Assembly: GCA_001800605.1 (NCBI GenBank)
Contig: MGVS01000068.1
Span: forward strand, 14,028 to 78,027
From: Elusimicrobia bacterium RIFOXYD2_FULL_34_15
GTDB lineage: Bacteria; Elusimicrobiota; UBA8919
Direction: 5' to 3'
DNA: 64,000 nt
Shown: piece after piece, positions 2,549 through 59,790 of the stretch
How positions within the stretch are numbered: the first letter of the stretch is position 1
Layout: each line of letters begins with the position of its first letter
Notes under the pieces: generated by a model
Databases searched by the model: none
The model's input: only the letters and a program-made list of their open reading frames with translations
Told to the model about the DNA's origin: nothing
Program-made: the position numbers and the translations under genes

Positions 2549-3073
2549 ATGAAAATAAATAATAAAATTTGTTTATTACTAAATTTTTTGTTCCTAACTT
2601 CGTTGATAGTTAATTTCGGATGTAGTAAGAAAAAAGCTACGGATGATGCTCAGCAGGTTACTGCTCCCCGTCCAAAACCAAAAATTCCGGAATATGTCCC
2701 ACCGGTTCCTCCACGCAAATATATTTACAAAGGTGCTGCTTATCGTGACCCTTTGTTACCAGGCGGTGGCGGTATGGCTTATTCAGCTTTGGCTGAAAGT
2801 GGCGAAGGTACCGAAACGTTCACAAGTGAAAAATTAGCTACATTGCAATTAAAAGGAATATTTAGAGATAAGAATTCCAGACAAGCAATAGCCATGATAG
2901 GTGATTCTTCCGGTGGATCCTATATGTTAAAGGAAGGAAAACTCTATAATAGAAGAAACAAAATAGTTAATGACGTATCCGGTGTTGTAGGACAAAAATC
3001 AATTACTCTCATTTGTAATGATATTAAAGTTGAATTATCTTTGAAAAAATCTGAGGAGGAAAAAGAAAAATGA
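2549..3073 (+). CDS. pilP: Type IV pilus assembly lipoprotein PilP
   Basis: 174 aa. Lipoprotein signal (LIVNFGCSKKK), Pro-rich linker and C-terminal beta domain. Immediately precedes the secretin. Confidence 0.72.
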   Translation: MKINNKICLLLNFLFLTSLIVNFGCSKKKATDDAQQVTAPRPKPKIPEYVPPVPPRKYIYKGAAYRDPLLPGGGGMAYSALAESGEGTETFTSEKLATLQLKGIFRDKNSRQAIAMIGDSSGGSYMLKEGKLYNRRNKIVNDVSGVVGQKSITLICNDIKVELSLKKSEEEKEK

Positions 3074-14972: not shown

Positions 14973-15049
14973 TAAATTTTATTTTATAAGTTAAATTAGT
15001 GACGAAAATAACAGATTTCTGTTCTTACTCTAAAGATTACTAACCAAAT

Positions 15050-16615: not shown

Positions 16616-16806
16616 TCTTAAATCAATTAACTGTTTTATAGTGTAAATAAGTTTTCAATTTATATTGTTACGAATTTATATCTAAAACTCTACCGGGACA
16701 TCCTATCAAAATGAGTTATAGAGTTTATTGAGTTCTTAGAGTTTTAGCGTTAGAATCCTATAACCCTATAACCCAAAAACCTATAAACTTCCTCTAAAAA
16801 AAGAGC

Positions 16807-16835
16807 TTGACAAATATTGAAATATTGTTTATACT
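16807..16835 (+). promoter_or_regulatory. Sigma70-type promoter (TTGACA 16807-16812, 17-nt spacer, TATACT 16830-16835) upstream of the GbsR-like regulator
   Basis: Direct sequence match in a 253-bp AT-rich intergenic region that also contains short CTATAACC-like direct repeats. Confidence 0.55.
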
Positions 16836-16867
16836 ATATTTAGAACGTTTAATACGTTTTAAACAAT

Positions 16868-17386
16868 ATGAATACTGATAATTTAAATATTAATTTTATA
16901 AGAATAATCGGCGAACTCGGCGCAAACTTGGGGTTAAACAGAAGTGTGGGCCAAATATACGGTCTTCTTTATATGAATGACGAACCATTATCACTTGATG
17001 ATATAGTCATTAAACTTAAAATGAGTAAAGGGAGTGTAAGTTTAAATATCCGTGAATTAGAAAGGTGGGAAGCTGTAAAAAAAATATGGGTAAGGGGTTC
17101 CCGCAAGGATTTCTATGAAGTTAATCCGGATTTTATTAATGTCATATACAAAAGAACGAATATCAGGACTAAGAAAATCTTAAATAGTTTTAATTCTGCT
17201 ATATCAGATTTCGAAAAAAACAATTCACTTAGTAAGGTTCAAAAAGAAAGACTCGTACAAATAAAAAAAATACAGGGTATTTTTCAAAGTATTTCAAATA
17301 ATTTGCCCGAGAATATTTCATTAAATATTATTTCAAAATTATCCTCATCATTATCAGTTTTAAAATCTATATTACCTAAAAAATAA
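16868..17386 (+). CDS. GbsR/MarR-family winged-helix transcriptional regulator
   Basis: 172 aa. The core RSVGQIYGLLYMNDEPLSLDDIVIKLKMSKGSVSLNIRELERWEAVKKIWVRGSRKDFYEV closely follows the GbsR-type MarR pattern (..GxxYGLLYLS..PLSLDEI...L..SKASVS...RELE.W..V..V). Confidence 0.7.
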   Translation: MNTDNLNINFIRIIGELGANLGLNRSVGQIYGLLYMNDEPLSLDDIVIKLKMSKGSVSLNIRELERWEAVKKIWVRGSRKDFYEVNPDFINVIYKRTNIRTKKILNSFNSAISDFEKNNSLSKVQKERLVQIKKIQGIFQSISNNLPENISLNIISKLSSSLSVLKSILPKK

Positions 17387-17395
17387 AGGTGAAAA

Positions 17396-18964
17396 ATGAG
17401 TACAAATATAAAAATTGCGAAAGCTTATGTCATTCTTATTACCGCAAGTGTTGTCGGCAGTATTTTGAGCTTAGGCAAAGAAATGCTTGTTGCCAAGTAT
17501 TTCGGAATTTCAAAAGCAATGGATGCTTTTTATACTGCTTTAACTATACCAAATTCTATTAACGCTATTACCGTCTCTACTTTTGGAATAACTTTTCTTC
17601 CTATTTTCGTGCAGTATAAAACTAAAGATAAAGAGGAAGCAAACCATCTGGCAAGTATTGCAATAAACTATATGTTTATTTTTCTTTTCTTAATTGCAAT
17701 AATTCTTTTTATTTTTTCTAAACAAATTGTAACTAATTTTTTTAATGGGTTGAACCCAGAAACATCTATGCTTGCAATAAATATATTGAAGATATTAAGC
17801 ATAACAATGATATTTACCGGTTTGGTCGGCACAATTACCTGGATATTAAACGCATTTGAAAATTTTTCTGCACCTTCATTTTCACAGATGTTTATAACAA
17901 TAAGCATTATAACCTTTATTTTCTTTTTTACTAAGAGTATGGGCGTTTATATTTTTGCATGGGGAACTCTTGCTGGTTTATTTATTCAATTTGTCTTTCT
18001 ACTGCCTTTTTTAAAAAGGAAAGGTTATAAACATTATTTTGATTTTAACATACGGCATCCTGCAATGAAAAAAACATTAAATTTCAGTTTGACATTTTTT
18101 TTGCTAGGAGTTATTTCAAGTTTGACAGCCATAATAAACAGATCTATGGCATCATGGCTGCCGTCCGGAAGTATTGCAGCGTTAGGCTATGCCGATAAAC
18201 TGGTGCAGGTGCCTTTGGTAATTTTTTCAGGTTCAATTGCAACCGCCATATACCCTTTTTTTGCGAGTCAATTTGCTGAAAATAAAATAGAGGACATGAA
18301 AGACACTCTTGCAACCAGCATAAAAATGACCGGTTTCATCTTTATACCTTTAGCCGTAGTTATGATTATTCTGTCAAAACCCACAATTCAAGCTCTATTT
18401 CAAAGGGGTGTTTTTGACGAACACGCAACAAATTTAACATCTATAATTTTTATATGCTATACACTTCAGCTTTTTTCCAATTTCGCAGTAGTAGTTATGG
18501 CAAGATTACTTCTTGTATTTCAGGATATGTTGAGTTATGTAAAAATAACAATAACCGGCATAGTGTTAACGGTAATACTAAATTTTATTTTTATTAAAAC
18601 GGTTAATCCGCCGGCAGCAGGAATCGCTCTTTCAACTTCCTTGGTGTGTCTAATTACTGCTATTCTTTATTTCATATATTTGAAGAAAAAAATACATAAT
18701 TTACATGGAATATCTATACTTAAATCGTTGAGTAAAACAACTTTTTTTGCTATAATATCAGGAATAATTATTTTTGTCGTTTTCCGAGAATTAAATGCAT
18801 TGATTCCAAAAATTTCACTTTTCAACCGGCTTTTTAAAATAATTTGTTCGGCATCTATAGGAATGGCATCTTTTATTGCAATATCATTTTTATTGAAATT
18901 TGAAGAAGCAGATAAAATTTATAAACTTGTAAAAACAAAAATTAGGAGTTTTGTTAAAAGATAA
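17396..18964 (+). CDS. MurJ/MviN-family (MOP superfamily) lipid-linked oligosaccharide flippase
   Basis: 522 aa with about 14 TM helices. N-terminal region ...GSILSLGKEMLVAKYFGISKAMDAFYTALTIPN matches MurJ/Wzx-type flippases. Confidence 0.75.
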   Translation: MSTNIKIAKAYVILITASVVGSILSLGKEMLVAKYFGISKAMDAFYTALTIPNSINAITVSTFGITFLPIFVQYKTKDKEEANHLASIAINYMFIFLFLIAIILFIFSKQIVTNFFNGLNPETSMLAINILKILSITMIFTGLVGTITWILNAFENFSAPSFSQMFITISIITFIFFFTKSMGVYIFAWGTLAGLFIQFVFLLPFLKRKGYKHYFDFNIRHPAMKKTLNFSLTFFLLGVISSLTAIINRSMASWLPSGSIAALGYADKLVQVPLVIFSGSIATAIYPFFASQFAENKIEDMKDTLATSIKMTGFIFIPLAVVMIILSKPTIQALFQRGVFDEHATNLTSIIFICYTLQLFSNFAVVVMARLLLVFQDMLSYVKITITGIVLTVILNFIFIKTVNPPAAGIALSTSLVCLITAILYFIYLKKKIHNLHGISILKSLSKTTFFAIISGIIIFVVFRELNALIPKISLFNRLFKIICSASIGMASFIAISFLLKFEEADKIYKLVKTKIRSFVKR

Positions 18965-18993
18965 CTAATTAATACAGAAATTCTAGGTAAAAT

Positions 18994-20595
18994 ATGAATA
19001 CTAAACCGAAAGTGTTATTGGTTCATCCGGCAAGTAAATCAAGAGGGTTTGCTTTTCCCATAGGATTGCTTTATGTTGCGCAATCGCTGATTAAAACAGA
19101 TATTGACGTTTCATTTGTTCATCTTGGAATTGACAGTGTTAAAAACATAAAACTTGAAAATTACCTTTTTGTCGGAATTAGTATGCTTACCAGCAAGATG
19201 ATATTGGACGGATTACATGTTGCAAAATTAGTAAAAAATTACAATAAAAATATCCCTATTGTTCTTGGCGGGGTTCATCCGTCGCTGCTCCCTGAAGAAT
19301 CCCTGCAAAACGAACTCGTTGATATTGTCGTTATAGGAGAAGGGGAAAAAACGGTACAAGAACTTGCCGTCTGCCTGCAAAATAAAGGTGATTTATCTAA
19401 AATAAACGGAATTGCCTTTAAAGACAATACAGGAAAAATAGTTGTGAATCCACCCCGTGATTTTATTGATATGAATGAATTGGACTTTGACCTTCCGTAT
19501 CACCTTTTGGGTAATAACATTTCATTATCGTATGAGCTTCCTCTTCACACTTCTCGGGGTTGTCCTTATAAATGCAGTTTTTGTTACAGTCCAGCTTTTC
19601 ATAAACGAAAATACAGATGTAAGAGTGCCGAGAGAGTTGTTGAGGAAATAGAATATCTTTATAAAAAATATAATATAAAAAGATTCGATGCCGGATATGA
19701 GGATGAATTCTTTCTAGATGTCAACAGAACTTATAAAATATTTAGTACTATTCTTAAAAAGGGATTAAAAATTCGTTGGAGTTCCTTCTGTAGATTTGAC
19801 ACATTTGATAATGCAGTTAAAAAATTTGGTGCTGATTTTGTAGATACAATAAAAAAATCCGGGTGCGACTATCTGGCTCTAGGCGCAGAATCAGGCTCTC
19901 AAAGATTATTGGATGAAATTATTAAGAAAGATATTAAAATTGAACAAATTTTAAGAGCTGTTGATTGGCTGAAAAAATATAACATACCTCACAGAGTAGG
20001 TTTTACATGCTGTTATCCTACCGAAACACAAGAAGATTTAAACGCTACCTTTGATCTTATTGATAAAATATCTTATAACAATTCAAATATGATATTAGGA
20101 ATTGGAAGGTTGATTCCATTGCCCGGAACTTCGGTTTTTGAATTATTAAAAAAAGAATATAACTACAAACCACCTTCTACCTTAGTAGGTTGGGGTGAAT
20201 ATAATCCATTTGATTCGTATAAAGAAGCTACATGGCTTTCTGAAAAACATGTAAAAATGTGTCATAATATGAGTTTATTAGCCGCCCCAGGTTTTGTTTT
20301 TTACAAAGATTTCAAATCTTATAAAATGTACAGAGAATTTATTTCCAGTTCAAATTCCGCTACCGTTTACCCGACAGGATATGTAGGTTATCTGATAACT
20401 AAAATTCAAAGATGGCGGTATAAGAAAAGAAAATTTAATAATATGATAGAGTCAATTTTATTTAATAAATTTAGAAAAATGCAGTTTTCTATGAAAAGAT
20501 ATATTGTCAATATTATTCTTAGAAAATATTTATCTCAAAAAGCCTACCAAAGATTGAAAATTTGGTTTGGCAATAAAAATGTGACAGAAAAATAG
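18994..20595 (+). CDS. B12-binding domain radical SAM enzyme
   Basis: 533 aa. LGGVHPS and VIGEGEKT B12-domain motifs. CPYKCSFC radical-SAM motif. Confidence 0.85.
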   Translation: MNTKPKVLLVHPASKSRGFAFPIGLLYVAQSLIKTDIDVSFVHLGIDSVKNIKLENYLFVGISMLTSKMILDGLHVAKLVKNYNKNIPIVLGGVHPSLLPEESLQNELVDIVVIGEGEKTVQELAVCLQNKGDLSKINGIAFKDNTGKIVVNPPRDFIDMNELDFDLPYHLLGNNISLSYELPLHTSRGCPYKCSFCYSPAFHKRKYRCKSAERVVEEIEYLYKKYNIKRFDAGYEDEFFLDVNRTYKIFSTILKKGLKIRWSSFCRFDTFDNAVKKFGADFVDTIKKSGCDYLALGAESGSQRLLDEIIKKDIKIEQILRAVDWLKKYNIPHRVGFTCCYPTETQEDLNATFDLIDKISYNNSNMILGIGRLIPLPGTSVFELLKKEYNYKPPSTLVGWGEYNPFDSYKEATWLSEKHVKMCHNMSLLAAPGFVFYKDFKSYKMYREFISSSNSATVYPTGYVGYLITKIQRWRYKKRKFNNMIESILFNKFRKMQFSMKRYIVNIILRKYLSQKAYQRLKIWFGNKNVTEK

Positions 20596-20602
20596 GATAT
20601 TT

Positions 20603-21601
20603 ATGATTATAACAAGAACGCCTCATAGAATATCGTTTTTCGGCGGCGGAACAGATTATCCTTCATGGTATCTAAAAAACGACGGGAAAGTGCTCGGCGT
20701 TGCAATTGATAAGTATTGCTATCTAATCGTCCGTAAACTGCCGCCTTTTTTTGAAAATAAATACAAAATTGTATATTCGCAGATGGAATTTCCAAAAACC
20801 ATAGACGAAATTAAACATCCTTCTGTAAGAGAAACTCTTAAATATTTTAATTATAAAGAAGGAGTTTCTATACACCACGACGGCGATATTCCTGCAAGAT
20901 CCGGGATGGGTTCAAGCTCTGCTTTTACCGTAGGTTTATTAAAAGCTATGTATGCGCTTGAAGGGAATATTATTTCGAAAAGTGATTTATTTAAACTTGC
21001 AATAAATATTGAACAAAATATCATAAAAGAAAATGTCGGTTCCCAGGACCAGGTTTTTGCTGCTTATGGGGGATTAAATAAGATTGATTTTTTAAAAAGC
21101 GGTGAAATCGTTGTAACTCCGGTAGTTTTAAAACAAGAAAATTTATCACTGTTCGACAAAAAATTTATGCTTTTTTTTACTGGAATATCGCGTAACGCAT
21201 CCGATATAGCAGAAGAACAGATAAAAAATACAAATAAAAATGAAAATGAACTTTTTAAACTAAGCAAACTTGTTGACGATGCTTATGATATTTTAACATC
21301 ATCAAAACCTGAGTTTGGATTATTCGGGAAACTTCTTAACGAAACATGGAAATTAAAACGAAGCCTGTCGGCAAAAATAAGCAATAGTTTAATAGATAAT
21401 ATTTATGATACTGCTATGAAAAATGGAGCAGCAGGAGGAAAATTGCTTGGTGCGGGAGGCGGCGGTTTTATGCTTTTTTATGTAGAACCTGAAAATCAAG
21501 TGAAAGTAAAAAATGCATTGAAAAATTTAATTAATATAACTTTTGAGTTTGATTTTTCCGGTTCTGAAATAATAGTTTATAAACCGGAATTTTATAAATA
21601 A
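20603..21601 (+). CDS. GHMP-family sugar kinase (HddA / fucokinase-like)
   Basis: 332 aa. PARSGMGSSSAFTVGL ATP-binding GHMP motif. C-terminal GAGGGGF motif. Confidence 0.75.
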   Translation: MIITRTPHRISFFGGGTDYPSWYLKNDGKVLGVAIDKYCYLIVRKLPPFFENKYKIVYSQMEFPKTIDEIKHPSVRETLKYFNYKEGVSIHHDGDIPARSGMGSSSAFTVGLLKAMYALEGNIISKSDLFKLAINIEQNIIKENVGSQDQVFAAYGGLNKIDFLKSGEIVVTPVVLKQENLSLFDKKFMLFFTGISRNASDIAEEQIKNTNKNENELFKLSKLVDDAYDILTSSKPEFGLFGKLLNETWKLKRSLSAKISNSLIDNIYDTAMKNGAAGGKLLGAGGGGFMLFYVEPENQVKVKNALKNLINITFEFDFSGSEIIVYKPEFYK

Positions 21602-27488: not shown

Positions 27489-27513
27489 ACATCCTATAAA
27501 GAAAAGGATGTCT
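27487..27513 (+). terminator. Perfect 9-bp inverted repeat (AGACATCCT-N9-AGGATGTCT) overlapping the E1-beta stop codon; terminator-like hairpin
   Basis: Seen directly in the sequence. No strong U-tract follows, so an intrinsic terminator is not certain. Confidence 0.4.
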
Positions 27514-27657
27514 GATTACACTGATTAAAAGGCAGATTACACAGATTATTTTAAAGGGTTCAGGTTCTAATCAGTGTAATCGGTGTTAAAAATCCCTGCC
27601 TGCCGGTAGGCAGGTGTGTAATCAGATATAATGTTAATTATATCAGGAGAAATAATT
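27514..27657 (+). promoter_or_regulatory. Structured leader/repeat element copy A: four GATTACAC/GTGTAATC octamers in both orientations, a GC-rich palindrome CCTGCC-N8-GGCAGG, a TATAAT box (27627-27632) and an AGGAG RBS (27645-27649)
   Basis: 60-bp core 27574-27633 is 100% identical to 39030-39089, followed by a shared ATTATATCAGGAG. Confidence 0.6.
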
Positions 27658-38946: not shown

Positions 38947-38973
38947 GAGATTGTTGAAAAACCCAACAATCTC
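38947..38973 (+). terminator. Perfect 10-bp inverted repeat (GAGATTGTTG-N7-CAACAATCTC) directly after the stop codon, followed by TGATTTC
   Basis: Seen directly in the sequence. The downstream T-tract is weak. Confidence 0.45.
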
Positions 38974-38996
38974 TGATTTCAATGATTAAACGACAA

Positions 38997-39111
38997 GATT
39001 ACACAGATTAGTACCAGACTGCAGTATCTGTGTAATCGGTGTTAAAAATCCCTGCCTGCCGGTAGGCAGGTGTGTAATCAGATATAATGAACATTATATC
39101 AGGAGTTTTAT
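38997..39111 (+). promoter_or_regulatory. Structured leader/repeat element copy B (GATTACACAGAT / ATCTGTGTAATC 12-bp inverted repeat, CCTGCC..GGCAGG palindrome, TATAAT 39083-39088, AGGAG RBS)
   Basis: 60-bp core 39030-39089 is identical to copy A. Sits upstream of the epimerase gene at 39112. Confidence 0.6.
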
Positions 39112-49427: not shown

Positions 49428-49796
49428 TAATATAGAATCTAATAAACTTCATGTTTTTGGAAATTCGGAAATTGGAGCTCCAAATGATAGTCATTAAATA
49501 GAATACCTTATACGCTTTGGAGCGGAAATCCCTGCCTACAGGCAGTGTAGTTGTTCAGTATTTTGGTAGCAGTTTTTAGGTATTTCATCAAGTGTAGTCA
49601 TTGCGAGGAATAAAATGACGAAGCAATCTCATGAAATATTTGTCCGACTAAGGAAAGATTGCCGCATCCGATTTTATCGGCTTCGCAATGACAACTTAAT
49701 TTGGTAAACAGATGTTACCGAAATTGTGAAGTACTACACGGCAGGCAGGCGCGAGGCGATCCCGATACTTTATCGGGACGCGAAGGCGGACAACAT
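49428..49796 (+). promoter_or_regulatory. 369-bp highly structured intergenic region (candidate leader RNA/regulatory region) upstream of the GT2 gene
   Basis: Contains a degenerate copy of the CCTGCC..GGCAG palindrome (49531-49545), a long-range inverted repeat GTCATTGCGAgG / CTTCGCAATGAC (~49599/49681), the hairpin CCGATtttATCGG, and a GC-rich segment with the hairpin ATCCCGATacttTATCGGGAC (49759-49779). Confidence 0.45.
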
Positions 49797-50498
49797 ATGA
49801 TTAAAAAACTTTCAATAATTATTCCCTGTTACAATGAAGAAGATACAATACTGCAAGTCGTAGATAAAATAAAACATGTACCGTTAAATTTAGAAAAAGA
49901 AATAATTATCGTATGCGACGGTTCAAGCGACGGCACGAAAGAACTTCTGCAAAAGCATTTTCCCTTGCAGGATAAAAATATTAAAACGGTATTTCACGAA
50001 AAGAATATGGGAAAAGGCAAGGCTGTTAAAACAGGGATTGAGGTTGCAACAGGGGATTACCTGATAGTACAGGATGCCGACCTTGAGTTAAACCCGGACG
50101 ATTACATTGCTTTACTTCAACCTATACAGAGCGGTAACGCTACCGTTGTTTTCGGTTCCCGTAAAGCAAAAGGTTTTAAAAAACTTTATTTTCATTCCGT
50201 TTTCGCCAATTTTGTCGTAACTTTCCTGACAAATTTTTTATACGGTTCAAAACTTACCGACCAGGCCTGCGGTTATAAAATATTACCGGTTTCACTGTTT
50301 AAATCTCTGGATTTAGAATCATTCGGATTTGAATTTTGTTCCGAACTAACCGCAAAGATTCTAAGAACCAAAAAATATATAATAAGCGAAGTTGACGTGG
50401 ATTATTTTCCGAGAACATACAAACAAGGCAAGAAGATAAGCTGGAAAGACGGTTTTATTGCCATTTGGACTTTGCTTAAATATAAAATAACCAAATGA
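49797..50498 (+). CDS. GT2 family glycosyltransferase (DPM1/GtrB-like)
   Basis: Start moved from the track's 49701 to ATG 49797 ([16 protein letters not shown]). VCDGSSDGT and QDADLE (DxD) motifs. Confidence 0.8.
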
Positions 50499-50614
50499 AG
50501 TTCCATCCCGATAACAATCGGGATAATATTTTTTTGCTTCTGGATTCTACGGAGCGTCCGCCACGGCGGATGCCCGCCAAGGCTTCGGACTTGACTGGCT
50601 GCATTATAAATTTT
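50496..50614 (+). repeat. ~120-bp GC-rich direct repeat, copy 1 (contains the hairpin ATCCCGATaacaATCGGGAT); left boundary of the islet
   Basis: About 85% identical over ~120 bp to 55248-55365. Both copies end immediately at a start codon. Confidence 0.7.
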
Positions 50615-52195
50615 ATGAAAAAAAATAATTCAAATGGTGGAAATATTGGTTTTGAAGAGAAACTGTGGAAAACAGCGGATAAACTGCGTAATAATATGGA
50701 TGCTGCTGAGTATAAGCATATAGTATTAGGTCTGATTTTTCTTAAGTATATCTCTGACGCATTTGAAGAACGTTATAAAATACTTGAAAAAGAAGTTACT
50801 GATCCAAAAAGTAATCAATACATAAAAGAACCAAAAGTCCTACATGAAATAATGGAAGATAGAGATGAATATAAATCTGTTAATGTGTTTTATGTTCCGG
50901 AGAAATCTCGTTGGTCACGTCTACAGAAAAATGCAAAACAACCCACAATAGGTAAAATCATAGATGATGCAATGGATGTCTTAGAAAAGGAAAATTCAAC
51001 CCTTAAAGGTGTTCTTCCTAAAAATTATGCAGACCCTAAACTTGATAAACAACGTCTTGGTGAACTGATAGACCTTATAGGTACAATTAGTTTAGGAGAT
51101 TACGAAAATCGCAGTAAGGATATTTTAGGTAGAGTTTACGAATATTTTTTAGGACAATTTGCAGATTCGGAAGGTAAACGAGGCGGACAATTTTACACTC
51201 CTCGAAGTATAGTGCAATTACTTGTTGAAATGATGGAGCCATATAAAGGCCGTATTTTTGATCCCTGCTGCGGTTCCGGCGGTATGTTTGTGCAAAGCGA
51301 AAAATTTGTAAAAATACACGGTGGTAAATTAGGCGATATTGCTATTAACGGACAGGAATCCAATCAAACCACCTGGCGTCTCTGCAAAATGAACTTAGCA
51401 ATCCGCGGCATAGATGCAAATATAGCCTGGAATAACGAAGGTAGTTTCTTAAAAGATGAACATAAAGATTTAAAAGCAGATTTTATATTAGCCAATCCAC
51501 CGTTTAATGACAGCGACTGGAAGGGCGAGCAATTAAGAGATGATGTAAGATGGAAATACGGCGTCCCGCCGACAGGCAATGCTAATTTCGCTTGGGTTCA
51601 GCATTTTATTTATCATCTATCGCCAAAAGGCATAGCAGGTTTTGTATTAGCAAACGGTTCTATGTCTTCTAACCAGTCAAACGAAGGTGAAATAAGAAAA
51701 AATATAATTGAGGCAGACATAGTGGATTGTATGGTTTCTTTACCAACACAACTTTTCTACAATGTAATGATACCTGCTTGTCTGTGGTTTGTTTCCCGTG
51801 ATAAGAAAAATCACAAATTCAAAGACAGAAGAGGCAAAGTTCTTTTCATCGATGCTAGGAAAATGGGGCTAATGATTGACCGCAGACACAGGGAACTAAC
51901 TGAAAAAGAAATAAATAAAATTGCTGATATTTATCACGCTTGGCGTGGAGAAGGCGGCAGGTATAAAGATGAAAAGGGCTTCTGTAAATCGACAACTCTT
52001 GAAGAAATAAAATCACAGGGCTATATTTTGACTCCCGGAAGATATGTAGGCACAGAAGAAGTGGAAGAAGACGATGAAAAGTTTAATGAAAAAATGAAAC
52101 GACTTACCAAAGAACTTTCAGAACAATTCGAAAAATCCATCGAACTTGAAAAAGAAATAAAAAAAAATCTGAAGGGTTTGGGCTATGAAATATGA
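50615..52195 (+). CDS. hsdM: Type I restriction-modification system N6-adenine DNA methyltransferase subunit HsdM (orphan: no HsdS or HsdR present)
   Basis: Start moved from the track's 50495 to ATG 50615; upstream of it the frame merely reads through the repeat. HsdM_N domain ([34 protein letters not shown]). Motif [12 protein letters not shown]. Catalytic NPPF (ILANPPFN). Confidence 0.88.
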
Positions 52196-52971
52196 AATTT
52201 ACAATTATTTGTGATGAAAGTGGTACTGAGAATAGGCATTTGGTTATAGGGGCACTTGTTATTCCAAGAATTAACCATACTTTACTTATTGAGGAGATGA
52301 AAACCTTAAAGAAAGAGTTACATCTGCGATGGGAAGGTGAAATCAAATGGGGTAAAGTGAGCAAAAAATATATTGAAAAATATAAGAAAATCACCGAGTG
52401 GTTTTTCAATCACCTTAAGTCAAACCATTTAAAATTCCGTGCTCATGTGATTGATACCGCAAAGAAAGAATACCGCGAATATGGGGAAGGCGACAAAGAG
52501 AATTCTTTTTATAAGGTTTTCTTTCATCTCCTTATGCAATGCATTAAACGGTTGGCTATAGAAGAAGAAGGTAGCAATGTGCTGATACTATTAGATGATA
52601 AAAAGAATAGATATCCTTTTAGATTACCACTTTTAAAGAAAACTTTAAATAAAGCGTTAAAAAGGGATTTGAAATTACACGAAATAGTGGCTAATGTAGA
52701 ACCAAGACATTCCAGCGGTAACCGAGTAGAAGGACTTATACAAATAGTAGATGTTTTGATTGGAGCTATTGGATATGTTAGGAATGAATCTTGTAAATTA
52801 CCAAATGCGTCACCTGCAAAAGTAGAAATGATTGGCTTTTTGGAAAATCTGATTGGCACAAAGTTTGAATACGATACTAATGCAGGGGCACTATTTAATA
52901 TTTGGACATTTGATGTTACTGTGCCGTTAGAAAAGAAAAAGTATTATAAAAAAAATCGCCCTATCACCTAG
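52192..52971 (+). CDS. DUF3800-family protein
   Basis: 259 aa. N-terminal [13 protein letters not shown] is characteristic of DUF3800. ATGA overlap with the hsdM stop suggests translational coupling. Confidence 0.65.
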
Positions 52972-53138
52972 CTCCCAAAAGAGCACCCCTTTCGGGGAAC
53001 TACGCCATAAGGCGTAGGTTTCAGTAATAGTAGCGACTTATAAGTTTAGTATACATAAAAAAAAATAAAAAGCAATAAAATAAAAAAACAAAAATATTTT
53101 TTTAATTGTAGGAACGGTTCACGCAATAGTCCAATAGT

Positions 53139-53687
53139 AATATTACAGGAAAGGACAGAATAGAAATATTCAATCCCGGTCAATTTCCTTATGAATATGA
53201 GCCGGAAGATTTTTTTAAAGGCAATCTTCCGAGCGTGCCGCGCAATCCGTTGATTGCAGAAGTGTTTTATCTTTCCGAAGATATTGAAAAATGGGGCTCC
53301 GGCTTGCGCCGTATAAGTCAGGAATGTAAAACAGCAGGAGTCAAAGTTATTTTTAAGAAGATTAAAAGCGGATTTGTTGTTACTTTTTACCGTCCTAATA
53401 TTACCGGCATACCGGCAAAAGAAGAGGAAGGCAAGAATGTAAAAGACACTGTAAAAGACACTGTAAAAGACACTGTAAAAATGCTCAGTGAAAAAGAAAA
53501 TAAGATTTTGGAAATATTGAATAAAGAACCGAAAACTACTGCCAGAATGCTTGCAGAAGTTTTGAAAATCAATTTAAGAAATACCAAAAAATACCTATCC
53601 ATGTTACAAGAACAAGGGTTGCTTAAACGCATCGGCTCCGATAAAAGCGGCCGCTGGGAAGTGATTTTAAGAGGTATGGAAAAATGA
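53139..53687 (+). pseudogene. 5'-truncated remnant of an AlbA_2/HATPase_c_4 ('RecG C-terminal-like ATP-binding transcriptional regulator') gene
   Basis: The open frame begins right after a stop at 53136-53138. It reads ...DRIEIFNPGQFPYEYEPEDFFKGNLPSVPRNPLIAEV, which is the ERIEIxNPG core of HATPase_c_4. The N-terminal AlbA_2 domain is absent. The track's Met start at 53235 is internal. Confidence 0.6.
53439..53480 (+). repeat. 12-bp tandem repeat (GTAAAAGACACT x3.5) encoding KDTVKDTVKDTVK
   Basis: Seen directly in the sequence inside the truncated gene. Confidence 0.8.
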
Positions 53688-54142
53688 AAGACAATCAGAC
53701 AATAAAAATTTATATTTTTGAGATCTGGCTTGAGGAAAATGAGGGAAAAGTCTCCCGCCGGATTCAGATTGCCGGGAAGGATGCTCTTTACAATTTCGCC
53801 AAAATTATAACCAAATCCTTTGGTTTTTATTTTGACCATTGTTTCGGATTTTATGATAATTTTAATCGTCTTAACAATTCAACGAAAGCATTTGAATTAT
53901 TTGTTGATGTCGGTGAAACACCTTTATCAGAAATCACCAAGGGCGTTAAAAAGACAAAAGTCAGTCAGGCATTTGAAAATATCGGAGAGAAAATGCTTTT
54001 CTTTTTTGATTATGGTGATGAATGGCGGTTTACGGTAAAACTAATAGATATAAAAGATGTTTCAAAAGATATAAAAATAAAACCGGCAGTATTACAAAAA
54101 ATTGGCAAATCTCCTATGCAGTATCCGTCTTGTGATGAATGA
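53684..54142 (+). CDS. Plasmid pRiA4b ORF-3-like (PRiA4_ORF3 family) protein
   Basis: 152 aa. IKIYIFEIWL...FFFDYGDEWRFTVKLIDI matches the family's Y.FDFGD.W.H.I signature. Confidence 0.55.
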   Translation: MKDNQTIKIYIFEIWLEENEGKVSRRIQIAGKDALYNFAKIITKSFGFYFDHCFGFYDNFNRLNNSTKAFELFVDVGETPLSEITKGVKKTKVSQAFENIGEKMLFFFDYGDEWRFTVKLIDIKDVSKDIKIKPAVLQKIGKSPMQYPSCDE

Positions 54143-54247
54143 ATAATTAATATCGGTGCGTTCGTGGAACGCACCCTACAATGAAATCTGAAAAAAATGG
54201 CAAAAATAAAAATCAAGCACACCTAATTAATTGACATAATAGAAACT

Positions 54248-54925
54248 ATGAAACCAAGCTATATTGGGCATCGGAAGAGGCTCAAGGAAAAATACAAAAA
54301 AAACGGAATAAACGGCTGGCTTGATTACGAAGTGTTGGAACTGGCATTATCATATGCGATTCCGCGCAAAGATACAAAACCGATTGCAAAGGAACTGATT
54401 AGCAGGTTTAAGACCATTAATGGAGTGTTGGATGCAGATAGAAAATATTTAGAAGAAGTTAAAGGAATTTCTGAACATACCGCATTTTTTCTAAAATTGT
54501 TGAAAGATGTAGCAATTCTATATATGGAGAAAGGTATTCATAATAAAGATTTGCTTTCGTCACCGCAGCTTGTTTATGATTATTTGAAAACTTCTCTAAG
54601 AGGTGCATCTGACGAAGAATTTAAAATACTTTTTTTGGATAATAGGAACAAGCTGATTGGTATTGAGACCTTTGAAAGCGGTACTGTGAACCACGCTGTT
54701 GTATATCCAAGAAAGGTTGTTGAGAGAGCACTATATAATCATGCGGTTGGCGTTATTATTGCACATAATCATCCGTCAGGAGCGTTACAACCGTCACAGG
54801 ATGATATAGATGTAACTAAAACCATTAAGAATGCTCTCAGAACAGTTGAAATAACATTATTGGATCATATCATTATTGGTCATAACGATTATTACAGCTT
54901 TAAAAATAAAAACGAAACTCTTTAG
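54248..54925 (+). CDS. radC: RadC-like JAB/MPN-domain protein
   Basis: 225 aa. JAMM motif HNHPSGALQPSQDDIDVTK. N-terminal helix-hairpin-helix-like region. Confidence 0.85.
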   Translation: MKPSYIGHRKRLKEKYKKNGINGWLDYEVLELALSYAIPRKDTKPIAKELISRFKTINGVLDADRKYLEEVKGISEHTAFFLKLLKDVAILYMEKGIHNKDLLSSPQLVYDYLKTSLRGASDEEFKILFLDNRNKLIGIETFESGTVNHAVVYPRKVVERALYNHAVGVIIAHNHPSGALQPSQDDIDVTKTIKNALRTVEITLLDHIIIGHNDYYSFKNKNETL

Positions 54926-55247
54926 GGAAAGGGGAAACAAAAGAAGATTTTAATGAAACTCTTGAAATTGCTAAATCCGTAGGATTTGAAATTATAGATT
55001 ATCCCACCATATCCCGCAATTATTCCGCAGTATTAGGAAGTAGTGGCAAGATATCCTTGCCTAAAACGGTGTTGAAATTTATTTGTGCATTGGGATAATG
55101 GGGATAAAACCAACTATTTTTAATGGAACCACCTAATTGCGACAGCTTTTGGCGAGTATTACTTGAAAAAGAAAACAAATTAAATATAATGGTTTTATAA
55201 GGGATTAAGTTAATATCAGAAATTCAAGATTCAAGACCTGCCCTCTT

Positions 55248-55365
55248 AATGAAGCTCCATCCCGATAACAATCGGGATTATAACATCTACCTTAAGGATT
55301 CTAGGAGCGTCCGCTGCGACGGATGCCCGCCAAGGTCCCGGCCTTGACTGGATGCAGGATACATT
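55248..55365 (+). repeat. ~120-bp GC-rich direct repeat, copy 2 (hairpin ATCCCGATaacaATCGGGAT at 55258-55279); right boundary of the islet, directly upstream of the radical SAM gene
   Basis: Aligns with 50496-50614 with compensatory differences in internal hairpins. Confidence 0.7.
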
Positions 55366-56814
55366 ATGTTAAATGTTTTACTAATCAGTGCTCCGTATGT
55401 TGATTTATATGGACCCATTAAGTCCGCAGCCGGGAGGTATTTTCCTTTAGGCTTGGGATATATCGCATCTTTCCTTAAAAAAAACGGGTACTCAGTATCT
55501 CTTTACGAACCTGAAGCTCAAAAATTAAACATAGAAGAAATAAGTAAAATCTTCGCCGAAAAGAAACCTGACATAGTCGGTATCGGCAGTGCAACACCCA
55601 ATTTTTACAACGCCGTTGAACTGGCAAAACTAGCTAAAAAAACCTGCAATTGCAAGGTAATACTCGGAGGTATTCACGCGAGCGCTATTCCAGAATTCAT
55701 CATTGAAAAATATCATACTTGCTTTGACTATTTAGTTGTCGGTGAAGGTGAATACACAATGCTGGAACTCTTAAAATGCCTGGAAAATAAACAAATGCCT
55801 GATAGTGTTCCCGGCCTATGTTTTTGGCATGAAAATAAGGTTAATTTAACTCCATGCCGTCCATTCATCATGGATTTAGATAGTTTGCCTTATCCTGCCA
55901 GGGATATGATACCGCAAGAACTGTTTTATCCAAATTTACACAACGCAAGATACAGCAAGTGTTTTACTATACTTACCAGCAGAGGATGTCCTTTTAATTG
56001 TTCTTTTTGTGCTTCCGGATTAACTTTAGGTAAAAAATACAGGGTTAACAGTGCAGAATATGTGCTTGGTGAAATGTCTATGTTAAAAGAACAGTACGGG
56101 GCCAGGCAACTACTAATTACAGATGATACTTTCACTATCAATAAAAATAGATTACTTGAAATATGCGAAGGTATGATAAAAAAGAAACTGAACCTGGAAT
56201 GGTTTTGTTTTTCTCAGATAACTGCTGTAGATGAAGAAACCTTAAAACTAATGAAACGTGCGGGTTGCTATAATATAGGTTTCGGTATAGAATCGGCATC
56301 TCCGAGAATTTTGAAAATAATGGGCAAGCCGTATTCTCCGCAACAATGCAAAACTGTTATTGACGCCGCTAACCGTTTGGGAATGAAAACGCAGGCGTTT
56401 TTTGTTTTCGGCGAACCGGAAGAAACCATAGAAGAAATTAACAGTACGGTTAATTTTGCTATCGATATTAATCCGACATTATCATTTTTCAATATGCTGG
56501 TTCCGTATCCCGGCACAAAAGATTTCCAATATTTTTTCAAAGATATACCGCTGGATCAGATTGACTGGAAAAACTTTGTTGCTATAGGAACTAAATCCGT
56601 TATCAATAAAAATAGCAATTTAGATTTGGAAAAAATAGTCTTTAACGCCAATTTAAAATTTTATATGAGACCGCGCCAATTATTACATATCATATCAAAA
56701 ATTAAAACTTTTCATGAACTCTATTCGTATATTAAAGGCGGCTTAGGACTGCTCGCACAAATGATAACTTGGAAAACAGAAACCCGGCAAACAGATGAAA
56801 ATACTCTTAATTAA
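55366..56814 (+). CDS. B12-binding domain radical SAM enzyme
   Basis: 482 aa. ILGGIHAS and VVGEGEYT B12-domain motifs. CPFNCSFC radical-SAM motif. Confidence 0.85.
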   Translation: MLNVLLISAPYVDLYGPIKSAAGRYFPLGLGYIASFLKKNGYSVSLYEPEAQKLNIEEISKIFAEKKPDIVGIGSATPNFYNAVELAKLAKKTCNCKVILGGIHASAIPEFIIEKYHTCFDYLVVGEGEYTMLELLKCLENKQMPDSVPGLCFWHENKVNLTPCRPFIMDLDSLPYPARDMIPQELFYPNLHNARYSKCFTILTSRGCPFNCSFCASGLTLGKKYRVNSAEYVLGEMSMLKEQYGARQLLITDDTFTINKNRLLEICEGMIKKKLNLEWFCFSQITAVDEETLKLMKRAGCYNIGFGIESASPRILKIMGKPYSPQQCKTVIDAANRLGMKTQAFFVFGEPEETIEEINSTVNFAIDINPTLSFFNMLVPYPGTKDFQYFFKDIPLDQIDWKNFVAIGTKSVINKNSNLDLEKIVFNANLKFYMRPRQLLHIISKIKTFHELYSYIKGGLGLLAQMITWKTETRQTDENTLN

Positions 56815-58216
56815 TCCGCCAAACACAAACATGATTTTAACGCATTTACCTTCATATATCGATGAAGAATCCGGTATTTTTCCGCCATTGGGATTGATGT
56901 ATCTTGCCTCGTCTTTATCAAATAAGACCGGCATAAATGTTGAAATTCTGGATGCACTTTTAAATAAAATAAGCCTAAATAATATAGCAAATAAAATTAC
57001 AAATTATTTGCCGGACTTAGTAGGAATAACCGCGACTTCTTTCACGCTTATAGATGCTTTACTTATTGCCAAAACAGTAAAAGAAGTCAATCAAAATATA
57101 CATGTCACTATGGGCGGACCTCATGTAAGTATTTATCCTAATGAGACACTTTTGCAGAAAGATGTTGATTCTGTAGTCATCGGAGAGGGGGAAAAGACAT
57201 TCTCCGATTTAGTCAATAATTTAAACGAAGGAAAAAATCTTGAAGGAATTCCGGGATTAGCATTTAAAAATAAACAGGGACAAATAATAAATAACGGATA
57301 CAGGGATTTTATTGAAAATTTAGATGAGATTCCTTTACCCGACCGGAATCTTACTCCGTATAAAGAATATTATTCCATACTCGGAGAAAAACATCCTATT
57401 ACTACAATCATCACAAGCCGAGGCTGTCCGTTTAGATGCTCTTTTTGCTATCATTTCCTGGGTAAAAAATGGAGAACACGCTCTGCTAAAAACGTAATTG
57501 AAGAATTAGAGTCTTGCGTAAATATAGGAATTAGAGAATTCTGGTTTTTTGATGAAACATTTACAATTGATAAAAAAAGAGTCCTGGACATATGTGACGG
57601 TATAATCTCAAAAAAATTAAATATAAAATGGAATATCCGTAGCAGGGTAGATACAATCGATAAAAACATGATGGAGAGATTAAAACTGGCCGGCTGCGAA
57701 AAAATCTCATTTGGCATAGAATCGGCATTATCCAAGACTTTAAAAGTATTGCAGAAAGAAATAAATCCTGATAAATCCAAAGAAATTGTTTTACTGGCGA
57801 AATCATTAGGATTCGAAACTTCCACAGATTTTATGATAGGTTCCCCGGGAGAAACACGTGAAGACATTTTAGAAACAATATCTTTTTCATTAAAATTAGA
57901 CCCGGATTATGCCACATTTTCCATAACCACGCCTTTTCCTTGTACACAACTTTATAATTCATTGCTTGAAAATAAATTTTTTGACCGTGATTATTGGAAA
58001 GATTTCAGCATTTCACCAAGTAAAGATTTTATACCTAACCTTTGTAATGAATATTTATCCAGGGAAGAATTAGCTCATTTGCAGAATTATGCTTATAAAA
58101 AATTCTATCTGCGCCCGAAATATATTTTAAAGAAAATGTTAAAGCTAAAATCACCGATTGATTTTCTCAGAAAAGCAAAGGTTTCGCTAAGAATGCTTGC
58201 AAGCCGGGAAAAATGA
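56795..58216 (+). CDS. B12-binding domain radical SAM enzyme
   Basis: 473 aa. MGGPHVS and VIGEGEKT B12-domain motifs. CPFRCSFC radical-SAM motif. 20-nt overlap with the upstream paralog. Confidence 0.85.
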   Translation: MKILLINPPNTNMILTHLPSYIDEESGIFPPLGLMYLASSLSNKTGINVEILDALLNKISLNNIANKITNYLPDLVGITATSFTLIDALLIAKTVKEVNQNIHVTMGGPHVSIYPNETLLQKDVDSVVIGEGEKTFSDLVNNLNEGKNLEGIPGLAFKNKQGQIINNGYRDFIENLDEIPLPDRNLTPYKEYYSILGEKHPITTIITSRGCPFRCSFCYHFLGKKWRTRSAKNVIEELESCVNIGIREFWFFDETFTIDKKRVLDICDGIISKKLNIKWNIRSRVDTIDKNMMERLKLAGCEKISFGIESALSKTLKVLQKEINPDKSKEIVLLAKSLGFETSTDFMIGSPGETREDILETISFSLKLDPDYATFSITTPFPCTQLYNSLLENKFFDRDYWKDFSISPSKDFIPNLCNEYLSREELAHLQNYAYKKFYLRPKYILKKMLKLKSPIDFLRKAKVSLRMLASREK

Positions 58217-59790
58217 AGAAAACCATAATTTTATTAGTTATTCTTATCGCAAGTGCCGTCATACGGTTAACAGGAATCCAATGGGGACTGCCAAATAAGT
58301 TTCATACCGTAACATATCATCCCGATGAAAATACTCATCTTGTAAAACTTCAGGCAATGAATCCTTCAAAATTAAATTTTAACCCGGTTAGCGAAAGAGA
58401 CCCTTATGCTTTAGGAGAAGGTACTTTTTTCCTTTATCAATACGCTGCTACTTTAAAAATTTTGTCTTTTATTAAATATATTAAAATTGTAAACAATGAA
58501 GAATATTATTTCAATAATATCAATGAATGGAGAAAATTCTTTTTAGTCGGCCGTTTACTTTCAGTTATTTACGGGGTTTTAACCATTTTGGTTACTTTTA
58601 TAGTCGCAAAAAAAATGTACGGATTCAGAACCGGTATTCTTGCGGCGCTTTTTTTAGGTCTTGCACCGGTCCACGTAACCTATTCACAGTACCTGTTAAT
58701 GAATGTACCGGGAGTTCTCTGGATTGTCCTTGCTTTTGTTTTCTTTAAAAATATTTTAGATTCCGGAAAACAAAAAGATTATATTTTAGCCGGGGTATGC
58801 ATCGGTTTTGCGATTTCAACACGGTACTCTGCAGGGCCTTTATTATTAGTATTAATTGTCACACACTTTCTACGCAAAGAAATAAAAGAATTAAAAAAAC
58901 TGGTTTTCGGCCTGACAGCAATGGTTTTTTCTTTTTTAATCGGCACTCCTTATGCAATTCTCGATTATCCTAATTTTATAAAAGGGATAAAATCGCCGAT
59001 AGCTGTAGCAGGCATATCTTCCGCTAATTATTCGATTTTACCGCTGTATGGAAGTTTTTTGGAAAGCTTTGGAATATTTTTACTTATTTTATGCCTGATA
59101 GGTATTTTATATGCAATAATAAAAAGAAAATCAGAAGATTATATTATTCTTACATGGATTTTTATTTTACTTTTCTTTTTTATAAGAGCAGGAGTAAACG
59201 CTTTTCCAGGTAGAATACTGCCAATTGTTCCTTTTTTAATAATTCTGGGGGCAAATCTAACAAATAATATATGGAATAAAAAAGCTGTTTTAGGTCTGTT
59301 TATGACTATATTAATTCTTCTTACTATTTTACCTTTTTCGCTTGCCTTGTTAAAATTAAGAACCGAACCCGATTTAAGGGATGTTTCTTCCGAATGGATA
59401 GAAAATAATATCACTGCGGGCTCAAGCATCGGACTGCTCCGCGAACCGTCGTGGTTTTCACCTGGTATAGTTGATAGAAAATACCGGCATCCGGAGTATT
59501 TAAACTTGCCTAATTATAAGTTTATACTATTAAACGGAGATTTACCTTCTTATCCCGGATATATCAAACTTAAAAAAAATTTACCTGATTACTTAATAAT
59601 AAGTGATGTTGAAATTAATTTGCTAAATGAACCTGGATTCCTAAATAAACTAAAAGAAAAATATCACTATGAAAATATCGAAAATTTTGATAAAAGTTTC
59701 AGTATTTTCAATATACGAGTAAACCGGCAAATACCCGAGATGATTCGCGTACCGAACTACATATCAATCTTCAAGAAAAACAAATCTTAA
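58213..59790 (+). CDS. GT-C fold membrane glycosyltransferase (ArnT/PMT_2-like)
   Basis: 525 aa with about 11 TM helices. First-loop motif YHPDENTH (DE) as in ArnT/PMT-type GT-C enzymes. C-terminal soluble domain. Confidence 0.5.
   Translation: MKKTIILLVILIASAVIRLTGIQWGLPNKFHTVTYHPDENTHLVKLQAMNPSKLNFNPVSERDPYALGEGTFFLYQYAATLKILSFIKYIKIVNNEEYYFNNINEWRKFFLVGRLLSVIYGVLTILVTFIVAKKMYGFRTGILAALFLGLAPVHVTYSQYLLMNVPGVLWIVLAFVFFKNILDSGKQKDYILAGVCIGFAISTRYSAGPLLLVLIVTHFLRKEIKELKKLVFGLTAMVFSFLIGTPYAILDYPNFIKGIKSPIAVAGISSANYSILPLYGSFLESFGIFLLILCLIGILYAIIKRKSEDYIILTWIFILLFFFIRAGVNAFPGRILPIVPFLIILGANLTNNIWNKKAVLGLFMTILILLTILPFSLALLKLRTEPDLRDVSSEWIENNITAGSSIGLLREPSWFSPGIVDRKYRHPEYLNLPNYKFILLNGDLPSYPGYIKLKKNLPDYLIISDVEINLLNEPGFLNKLKEKYHYENIENFDKSFSIFNIRVNRQIPEMIRVPNYISIFKKNKS

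Follow-up and report, generated by a model that had tools for sequence, protein, structure and literature searches.

In the Rifle groundwater metagenome-assembled genome Elusimicrobia bacterium RIFOXYD2_FULL_34_15, a glycan gene module is interrupted by an islet that carries hsdM, a DUF3800 gene, a PRiA4_ORF3-like gene, radC, and the remnant of another gene and that is bracketed by two direct repeats. The material examined comprised a window of 64 kb, by which we mean the whole stretch of DNA under analysis, and ~13 kb more of the same scaffold, giving ~77 kb and roughly 60 gene junctions. The repeats are two diverged copies of a dispersed, noncoding, hairpin-rich mosaic repeat of groundwater Elusimicrobia; the family appears to be undescribed, and it belongs to the familiar class of small structured intergenic repeats. 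In the account that we consider probable, the family is mobile-like and the 4.6 kb of foreign, partly decayed DNA between its two copies entered through them. The islet is a mosaic of truncated defense-locus pieces, an ordinary decayed defense remnant and not a functioning mobile island.

The two repeat copies at the islet borders

The ~120-bp direct repeats of the original prediction are present, and their coordinates were right to within 2 nt (the register was off by 2 nt, position 50496 matching 55250). The identity of about 85% given for them was slightly high: it is 79% globally over the intervals first proposed and ~83% over the core from AATGAAG to TGCA (50494 to 50603 versus 55248 to 55356, 110 nt, with one 1-nt indel, by hand count on the alignment). 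A 22-nt block (CCATCCCGATAACAATCGGGAT) and a 15-nt block (GGATGCCCGCCAAGG) were each found at exactly two places in the 64 kb, where 0.00 to 0.01 occurrences are expected by chance. An nhmmer search with the family profile described below returned no third copy in the window at an E value of ≤10 and no further copy in the ~13 kb of scaffold past it. The left copy runs up to the ATG of hsdM (50615), and the TGA stop of the upstream GT2 glycosyltransferase gene (50496 to 50498) falls within its first bases; the right copy ends 5 nt 5' of the ATG (55366) of the first of two B12-binding radical SAM genes (rSAM1). The only two copies found in ~77 kb mark precisely the two edges of the islet and share one orientation, and the link between repeat and islet looks nonrandom.

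From 5' to 3', the left copy is composed of AATGAAGTTCC, a hairpin that we call P1 (ATCCCGAT-AACA-ATCGGGAT), a T-rich linker, GGAGCG, a second hairpin, P2 (TCCGCC-ACG-GCGGA), TGCCCG, a third hairpin, P3 (CAAGGC-UUCG-GACUUG), and CTGGCTGCATTATAAA. The ~17% of positions at which the copies differ fall in module-like blocks, and the hairpin loops differ as well. The right copy is nearer to the family consensus and has a linker like that of L130, while the linker of the left copy is like those of L078a/c. Common to both is the extra P2 hairpin, which is absent from the other 12 units of the family; no one of these 12 combines P2 with the P3 type of the window.

The left copy is open and in frame with hsdM, and gene callers read through it, giving HsdM a spurious 40-residue N terminus: the called protein has 566 aa (50495 to 52195; P0121), its first 40 residues are translated repeat, and homologues begin at the ATG at 50615 and have 526 aa. 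But for one substitution, the same 40-aa extension derived from the repeat is found on a 94%-identical HsdM from another assembly (P0122); the junction between left repeat and hsdM is therefore not recent. A search with the 40-aa translated repeat found no candidate protein, and the 1-nt indel between the window copies destroys any common reading frame. Assemblies made from short reads are also broken by the repeat, always at one base. Four contigs (L005, L006, L007, and L158), which come from three independent assemblies of this kind, all start at 55264, which lies one 31-mer beyond the divergence of the right copy (..ACATCTACCTT followed by A) from an L130-type copy (..ACATCTACCTT followed by C); the shared start therefore points to another copy with the same 5' 44 nt in the same samples.

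Dispersal of the repeat family

A metagenome scan with P1 and the 3' end CTGGMTGCA gave 13 loci, from which the family profile was built. With this profile, nhmmer recovered full units, partial units, singletons, and head-to-tail arrays of two or three units; after removal of duplicate contigs, at least 14 distinct units remained at at least 8 loci. In the sister species (UBA9627 type), the family is present at at least 8 unrelated loci. Among the matches listed, the whole element was found only in Elusimicrobia bacterium UBA9627 and at the 13 metagenome loci. Its neighbors are mutually unrelated and include gyrB, an ldh/mdh-like (lactate/malate dehydrogenase) gene, a TonB-dependent receptor, an ECF sigma factor, a sigma-54-like gene, an OmpA-like protein, a HigBA-like pair, and a pair of radical SAM and GHMP-kinase genes, as read by eye from open reading frame translations without a family search. 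At about half of the loci the element is co-oriented with its neighbors (for example, L136, L138, and L134); at others it is antisense to both neighbors or lies 3' of convergent genes (L078/L132, L079, L133/L137, and L131).

One of these loci, L138, is syntenic with window positions 13590 to 21586 at 70 to 76% nucleotide identity. There the element occupies the space between the radical SAM and GHMP-kinase genes, which in the window is a gap of just 7 nt, and the element has therefore been gained or lost at orthologous sites; the flanks (~72% identity) are too diverged to place the insertion junction to the base. The family behaves as a small nonautonomous mobile element that enters intergenic gaps, often at stop/start junctions. 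The original prediction had named occurrence of the repeat upstream of many unrelated genes as what would make it a dispersed regulatory element rather than an insertion scar, and in the sister species the element does stand near many unrelated genes. The repeat had no match in phage, plasmid, and viral-contig sets. Rfam 15 gave no match at gathering thresholds over the whole window and nothing overlapping the repeats at an E value of ≤10 in positions 50300 to 55600, and a literature search returned nothing on Elusimicrobia repeats.

Direct copies with genes between them were seen once more, at L132 (positions 13150 to 14712, equal to L078 positions 61 to 1504). Directly after gyrB, two two-unit arrays in the same orientation enclose a 1.1-kb segment that carries a 182-aa gene and, on the opposite strand, a small zinc-ribbon-like open reading frame. 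Both arrays precede the same ~20 nt (TAGAACCGTCCCCATTAT).

The P1 hairpin was tried as a probe for the family and set aside. Scanned against one genome per species, TCCATCCCGAT-N4-ATCGGGAT matched at least 119 loci in many phyla, mostly in Bacteroidota with an AGCT loop; among the matches listed, the rest of the element was present at only two loci, both in Elusimicrobia bacterium UBA9627, and the others share the hairpin alone, so that P1 is not diagnostic. The palindrome, often extended to ...GGA (L011 to L129), recurs in Bacteroidota, Chloroflexota, Ignavibacteriota, Planctomycetota, and other phyla with unrelated flanks. The chance expectation was ~4 matches (19 specified bases, 596 Gb) against the at least 119 loci observed, and the palindrome may be a widely recurring terminator or a hairpin like those of repetitive extragenic palindromic (REP) elements.

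Architecture and borders of the unit

An alignment of the 14 distinct units, which are 105 to 125 nt long, gave the block order GCTCC, P1, a ~25-nt linker, GGAGCG, AAATCC or an extra hairpin, TGCCCG, P3, and CTGGMTGCAGGAT(G/A)AA, with the unit boundaries at GCTCC-P1 on one side and at P3-CTGGMTGCAGGATRAA on the other. Invariant blocks are combined with swapped hairpins: P1 occurs in two unrelated versions, the linker in two subtypes, and P3 in at least four versions. The window copies have the extra hairpin (TCCGCC-N-GGCGGA) in place of AAATCC, and one unit has an additional inserted hairpin. In the RNAalifold structure, GCUCC pairs with GGAGC around P1 and AUCCUGCCC pairs with GG..GCAGGAU around P3; 94% of cells were paired in the consensus fold, compared with 27 to 47% in slid controls. 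P3 alone shows compensatory changes, the other helices being invariant and without covariation, and G-U wobble-type changes occur for both strands, so the functional strand cannot be inferred from them. No terminal inverted repeats were found: local alignments of the first 20 to 30 nt with the reverse complement of the last 20 to 30 nt scored 5 to 6, equal to the shuffle mean.

The left border was readable in nine cases and reads ATGAA in eight and TTGAA in one. Right ends of the family read ATGAA or ATAAA, the right window copy ending in a degenerate ATACA. Within arrays, the closing ATGAA of one unit doubles as the left border of the next. P1 begins 5 nt from the left border, and P3 ends 16 nt from the right end. 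We infer from the borders that the element prefers ATGAA as its target. An element that inserts after ATGAA and ends in ATRAA would keep stop and start codons and would stack into arrays, and at stop/start junctions its ends appear to supply TGA, AGGA, and sometimes ATG. At the right window copy, AGGA sits 8 nt before the rSAM1 start and could serve as its ribosome-binding site. If the rule from ATGAA to ATRAA reflects real targeting, the family would neatly illustrate how a mobile element can be adapted to the junctions of operons.

Probable entry of the islet into the glycan module

The islet was originally described as interrupting a glycan locus, and comparison with relatives bears this out. 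A B12-binding radical SAM gene and then PMT_2 come after GT2 in all four relatives (GT2 64 to 69% identical), GT2 and the radical SAM gene being direct neighbors in three; the islet thus interrupts a module, GT2 to B12-binding radical SAM to PMT_2, that is contiguous in relatives. GT2 overlaps the radical SAM gene by ATGA in two relatives and is separated from it by 7 nt in one, and in the fourth a methyltransferase gene lies between. ATGAA occurs at the overlap or at the radical SAM start in three of the four. The single repeat copy that had been expected at this junction was not seen, no repeat-like sequence being present at it in the relatives examined. A paralogous GT2-rSAM-rSAM-PMT_2 module lies uninterrupted farther along the same scaffold, and rSAM1, which is 31 to 32% identical to the radical SAM protein after GT2 in the relatives, is thus plausibly native to its position.

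Repeat-mediated entry of the patch is in our view most likely, and it is favored because the placement of the copies at the borders looks nonrandom and because both share the P2 hairpin. Two routes can be envisaged, both of which would proceed without an integrase in the islet. By the first, a circle or donor segment bearing one copy would have recombined with a copy resident at the junction of GT2 and the radical SAM gene. By the second, a segment reaching from the 5' end of one copy to the 3' end of the next would have been co-mobilized in trans by whatever enzyme moves the repeat family. Of the two origins proposed in the original prediction, capture between copies of a dispersed element is the one that fits the data best, but it is an inference.

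Several observations weigh against this account. No locus was found that could have been the donor, with the islet set between two repeats. No empty site was seen in a close strain, as the 8 contigs with an identical GT2 and the 12 with an identical rSAM1 are filled or stop short, and no recombinant junction was found among these contigs. The evidence of dispersal comes from the sister species (~72% nucleotide identity in syntenic DNA), the part of the source genome covered being the ~77 kb. The relatives used to establish adjacency are distant, and their radical SAM gene is the orthologue of the second one in the window, so the ancestral junction is not fixed to the base. The element is absent upstream of hsdM in the relatives L148, L151, and L153, and there is thus no sign that the donor restriction-modification (R-M) locus carried it. 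At 118 bp and 83% identity, the repeats would offer RecA-type recombination a poor substrate. No transposase acting on the element was identified, the flanks of the family copies not having been screened for transposase domains.

Alternative explanations

The two copies might instead have landed separately, after the islet had come by an unrelated route such as illegitimate recombination or a mobile element since lost; the borders would then have been chosen as ATGAA-like targets or as the only tolerated sites in a packed operon. The element does enter short intergenic gaps beside start codons at many unrelated loci, hsdM itself begins ATGAA, and the different linker subtypes of the window copies are what two separate events would give. 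The bare hsdM of the relatives fits as well. Nevertheless, we estimate the probability that the only two copies among ~60 junctions would fall by chance at both borders of the islet, co-oriented, at well below 1%. The L138 copy between tightly packed glycan genes indicates that other junctions are permissive, and the combination of P2 with the window type of P3 sets the two copies apart from the 12 other units. Separate insertion is for these reasons an unlikely explanation.

That the repeats are cis-regulatory RNA leaders, that is, structured 5' untranslated or intercistronic RNAs controlling hsdM and rSAM1 in a riboswitch-like manner, by antitermination, or through processing, is less plausible still, and we give it a low probability. 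Both window copies are co-oriented with the gene that they abut and end 0 to 5 nt before its start codon, as would be expected of leaders, and co-orientation was noted above for L136, L138, and L134 also. The fold is conserved, with compensatory changes in P3, and the sense-strand folding z-scores of the window copies are -3.2 and -1.7. About half of the other loci, however, have the element antisense to both neighbors or 3' of convergent genes, the element forms head-to-tail arrays, and the genes downstream of it are functionally unrelated. Its presence or absence at an orthologous site, the lack of any Rfam match even at an E value of ≤10, and the lack of covariation in helices other than P3 also argue against a leader.

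Two further readings are highly improbable. The other origin suggested originally was the duplication of a ~120-bp att-like target. In such a reading, a site-specific recombinase would have placed a circular islet into an attB site between GT2 and rSAM1, leaving attL and attR, and the integrase would later have been lost. In its favor, direct repeats stand at both ends of a block of mobile or defense type that interrupts a conserved module. The reading fails because each flank is a complete copy of a multicopy element rather than a short identical core, because the ~17% difference between them falls in module-like blocks, because the junction is bare in relatives, and because no recombinase is present; the element also occurs at at least 8 loci in the sister species without islets and in tandem arrays, and the window holds no integrase, tRNA, or tmRNA. 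Equally remote is an ancestral arrangement, in which the islet genes are old residents lost from the relatives examined and the repeats an unrelated decoration: radC belongs to a canonical full-length type that most bacteria have, the comparison used distant relatives, and neither the GC content (0.35 versus 0.32 elsewhere) nor the tetranucleotide distance of the islet is an outlier, yet the islet is missing from four independent relatives, its R-M operon and AlbA_2 gene are truncated, and the paralogous module in the same genome is uninterrupted. A compositional shift inside the islet had been proposed as a test; the tetranucleotide part of it was not borne out, but the GC skew of the islet, 0.16, is above the highest value (0.125) of any stretch of equal size in the rest of the 64 kb, which also counts against the ancestral arrangement.

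Comparison with known repeat families

Bacterial MITEs (miniature transposable elements with inverted repeats) and other small intergenic mobile repeats, among them Correia/NEMIS, ERIC/RU-1, RUP, and the Coxiella MITEs, have been reviewed (PMC3184786, PMC10969869). The Elusimicrobia element is like them in being small (~100 to 150 bp), noncoding, structured, multicopy, dispersed, and intergenic in either orientation, in being present or absent at orthologous sites, and in the ability to donate terminator-like hairpins, start and stop codons, and sequence resembling a ribosome-binding site. It differs in having no terminal inverted repeats, in forming head-to-tail arrays, and apparently in bordering on the same pentanucleotide everywhere (ATGAA/ATRAA) in place of a site-specific target duplication. 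The fixed borders (left, ATGAA or TTGAA; right, ATGAA or ATAAA) could equally be part of the element or a strict target.

Palindrome-associated transposable elements (PATEs), which derive from IS200/IS605, and REP elements with their bacterial interspersed mosaic elements (BIMEs) are moved by Y1 transposases (REP-associated tyrosine transposases, RAYTs). Single-strand transposons of the IS200/IS605 type and their miniature derivatives would behave as described above, inserting after a fixed sequence, keeping codons, and stacking into arrays. The Elusimicrobia element resembles them in the lack of terminal inverted repeats, in its mosaic copies, in its hairpins near both ends, P1 and the commonest P3 being similar (TCCCGA...TCGGGA and GTGGGA), and in having a fixed short sequence directly 5' and a similar one as its 3' end; this last likeness would explain the head-to-tail arrays. 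Its traits are compatible with a PATE or REPtron (no terminal inverted repeats, subterminal hairpins, and ATGAA 5' of eight of nine borders).

More speculatively, the element could be an undescribed nonautonomous element like the single-strand transposons, either of the IS200/IS605/RAYT kind or entirely new, that targets ATGAA and of which two copies can carry kilobase-scale cargo; we think this doubtful. If it were true, the target would coincide with the commonest gene start (ATG and a lysine codon), with the ATGA in which a stop and a start overlap, and with the 3' end of the element itself. Entry at an operon junction would then regenerate a stop codon, an AGGA resembling a ribosome-binding site, and a start codon, self-insertion would build head-to-tail arrays, and several kilobases of intervening genes, here a patch of defense genes, would travel as cargo with no integrase in it.

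REP sequences are single palindromes of 20 to 40 bp with an unpaired GTAG or CGTC tag (PMC3733652). REP units are usually paired in opposite orientation, unlike the Elusimicrobia units, which are 105 to 125 nt long, have two or three different hairpins, and form direct arrays; no GTAG stands beside a stem, and CGTC is found in the two window copies alone, within their P2 stem. The BOX elements of Streptococcus pneumoniae are modular (boxA, boxB, and boxC), intergenic, and stably folding, and they have no known transposase. The likeness to BOX lies in conserved end modules and variable or repeated internal ones; the sequences are unrelated, the phylum is different, and boxA, boxB, and boxC have no counterpart in the block order of the Elusimicrobia unit. 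Integron attC sites share with the repeats the character of imperfect, structure-conserved direct repeats of ~60 to 140 bp around promoterless genes, a likeness that extends to the 1.1-kb segment between arrays at L132. In contrast, what lies between the Elusimicrobia repeats is more than one gene or housekeeping genes, and the copies run either way and stand in direct tandem; their ends (ATGAAGCTCC and GCAGGATRAA) have no RYYYAAC/GTTRRRY core sites, and no intI or other integrase domain was found in the islet open reading frames or in the Pfam lists of the flanking genes. Nor does the islet have the make-up of an integrase-borne island, as it has no integrase, tRNA, or tmRNA and its repeats are full copies of a dispersed element.

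Contents of the islet

The gene content originally proposed for the islet (hsdM, a DUF3800 gene, a truncated AlbA_2/HATPase_c_4 gene, a pRiA4b-ORF3-like gene, and a RadC gene) was confirmed by Pfam (Table 1), as was the lack of an integrase or transposase, no such domain being found in the five islet open reading frames.

Table 1. Features of the islet, its bordering repeats, and the flanking genes
Feature	Position	Strand	Evidence or remark
GT2 glycosyltransferase gene (upstream flank)	49797..50498	+	Pfam Glycos_transf_2, E 8.5e-36
Left repeat copy	50494..50614	+	Fills the entire gap between GT2 and hsdM
hsdM, full-length methyltransferase subunit of a type I R-M system	50615..52195	+	Pfam N6_Mtase, HsdM_N; PADLOC MTase_I, E 7e-222
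DUF3800 gene	52192..52971	+	Pfam; PADLOC candidate defense family PDC-M04A
Noncoding stretch homologous to the DUF3800-hsdS spacer of relatives	52972..53143	+	blastn, sequence comparison
3' remnant of an AlbA_2/HATPase_c_4 gene with a winged helix-turn-helix	53235..53687	+	Pfam HATPase_c_4 positions 39-89 of 89, plus HTH_24
PRiA4_ORF3-like gene	53684..54142	+	Pfam, E 2.9e-15
radC, full-length, canonical RadC/YicR type	54248..54925	+	Pfam RadC, E 3e-45; NCBIfam PRK00024, 203 bits (cutoff, 180)
Noncoding spacer, apparently decayed	54926..55247	+	322 nt
Right repeat copy	55248..55365	+	Linker TATAACATCTACCTTAAGGATTCTAGGAGCG; 3' end GCAGGATACATT
B12-binding radical SAM gene 1, rSAM1 (downstream flank)	55366..56814	+	Pfam
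B12-binding radical SAM gene 2	56795..58216	+	Pfam; orthologue (48-52% aa identity) of the radical SAM gene after GT2 in relatives
PMT_2	58213-59790		3' of radical SAM gene 2

The first part of the islet is the start of a type I R-M operon. Its hsdM shares 82 to 84% nucleotide identity with the hsdM genes that relatives carry in type I loci, complete or partial, and the homology begins at 50613/50614. In blastn comparisons, L151 and L152 match window positions 50614 to 53143 at 83.6% nucleotide identity over 2,531 nt. L151 has the same hsdM-DUF3800 pair, followed by hsdS and a TIR_2 gene, and the homology of the islet to it begins directly after the left repeat and ends at 53143, where hsdS of L151 starts; this position is the truncation point of the hsdM-DUF3800 operon. 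The pair is collinear with that of L151, and the arrangement is like that of type I R-M loci that hold inserted accessory defense genes (hsdM-X-hsdS-...-hsdR), among them an hsdM-459aa-hsdS-...-Fic-hsdR locus of the sister genome, but it stops 170 nt after DUF3800. Domains of hsdS or hsdR (Methylase_S, HSDR_N, and ResIII) were found neither in the islet nor among the called genes of the surrounding ~77 kb. With hsdM present and hsdS and hsdR missing, the islet does not hold a complete type I system, and its hsdM is therefore either a remnant or an orphan M subunit that needs an S subunit encoded elsewhere.

The sister-genome locus is L148 (UBA9627 contig DMMW01000028.1, positions 10001 to 20722), a complete type I locus whose HsdM is 87% identical to that of the islet. 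Its order is hsdM, a 459-aa gene, hsdS, genes of 262 and 307 aa, Fic, and hsdR, and it adjoins a UvrD/PD-(D/E)XK helicase-nuclease and RmuC. One source attributes the L148 HsdM sequence to RIFOXYD2_FULL_34_15, and for this reason the orphan HsdM of the islet may have a paralogue, with an HsdS partner, elsewhere in the genome.

Downstream of the truncated operon, the AlbA_2/HATPase_c_4 remnant of 150 aa corresponds to the last third of a gene that has ~470 aa when intact; in L151 and L153, intact relatives are located upstream of hsdM. The PRiA4_ORF3-like gene had no PADLOC or NCBIfam match. In the spacer after radC, an open frame at 54928 to 55098 reads KGETKEDFNETLEIAKSVGFEIIDYPTISRNYSAVLG... 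and weakly resembles the "GETxED" of the radical SAM proteins of the locus (E value of 0.01 in a 12-sequence database). It had no NCBIfam match, and it may be what is left of a radical SAM gene that the insertion destroyed. Two assemblies break at 55146. An apparent 93-bp deletion in L009 (345 to 354), relative to window positions 55053 to 55145, was discounted as a scaffold gap, being a run of 10 N.

The insertion may have rewired transcription of the downstream radical SAM and PMT genes, given the terminator-like hairpin of the left repeat, whose P1 and T run (50505 to 50534) score as an intrinsic-terminator-like site, and two sigma-70-like promoter matches (55072 to 55099 and 55163 to 55190) that lie 60 to 170 nt upstream of the right copy; both kinds of site are consensus matches only. 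The current understanding of mobile DNA is unchanged in kind by this locus, which represents ordinary genome scarring and no new type of mobile island. It does show a very long co-directional glycan operon of an uncultured Elusimicrobia lineage that tolerates a foreign, decaying patch of defense genes.

The surrounding glycan locus

The C terminus of GT2 has the same length as in its orthologues. Pfam lists of the genes flanking the islet contain glycan and pilus genes only, with no integrase, and there is no tRNA or tmRNA across the window. All ~55 genes of the window are on the + strand, with type IV pilus genes, pilMNOQ (262 to 4809), at its start. The remainder is the glycan locus, which continues for >10 kb beyond the window end (L157 positions 10934 to 20933) and contains at least 10 B12-binding radical SAM paralogues and, with them, recurring GT2-rSAM-rSAM-PMT_2-AsnB modules; it is an unusually large, modular locus for glycan modification.

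Two other kinds of repeat were noted in this locus. A long imperfect inverted repeat at 49597 to 49692 (GTCATTGCGAGGAA...GAAGCAATCTC / GATTGCC...CTTCGCAATGAC), in the 274-nt gap 5' of GT2, resembles a repeat common in metagenomic genomes. An intergenic direct-repeat pair, unrelated to the one at the islet borders, lies at 27510 to 27650 and 38965 to 39110; its last 80 nt are 95% identical within a weaker match over ~150 nt. Each copy stands 3' of a terminator-like hairpin, closes with TATAAT...AGGAG just ahead of a gene start (27631 and 39112), and has a CCTGCCTGCC-GGTA-GGCAGG hairpin with copies of GATTACAC/GTGTAATC arranged around it in both orientations. A partial match is present at 49527, 5' of GT2, where the motif AATCCCTGCC of the pair recurs. 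The pair resembles a promoter/operator region that has been duplicated and that splits the giant glycan locus into suboperons.

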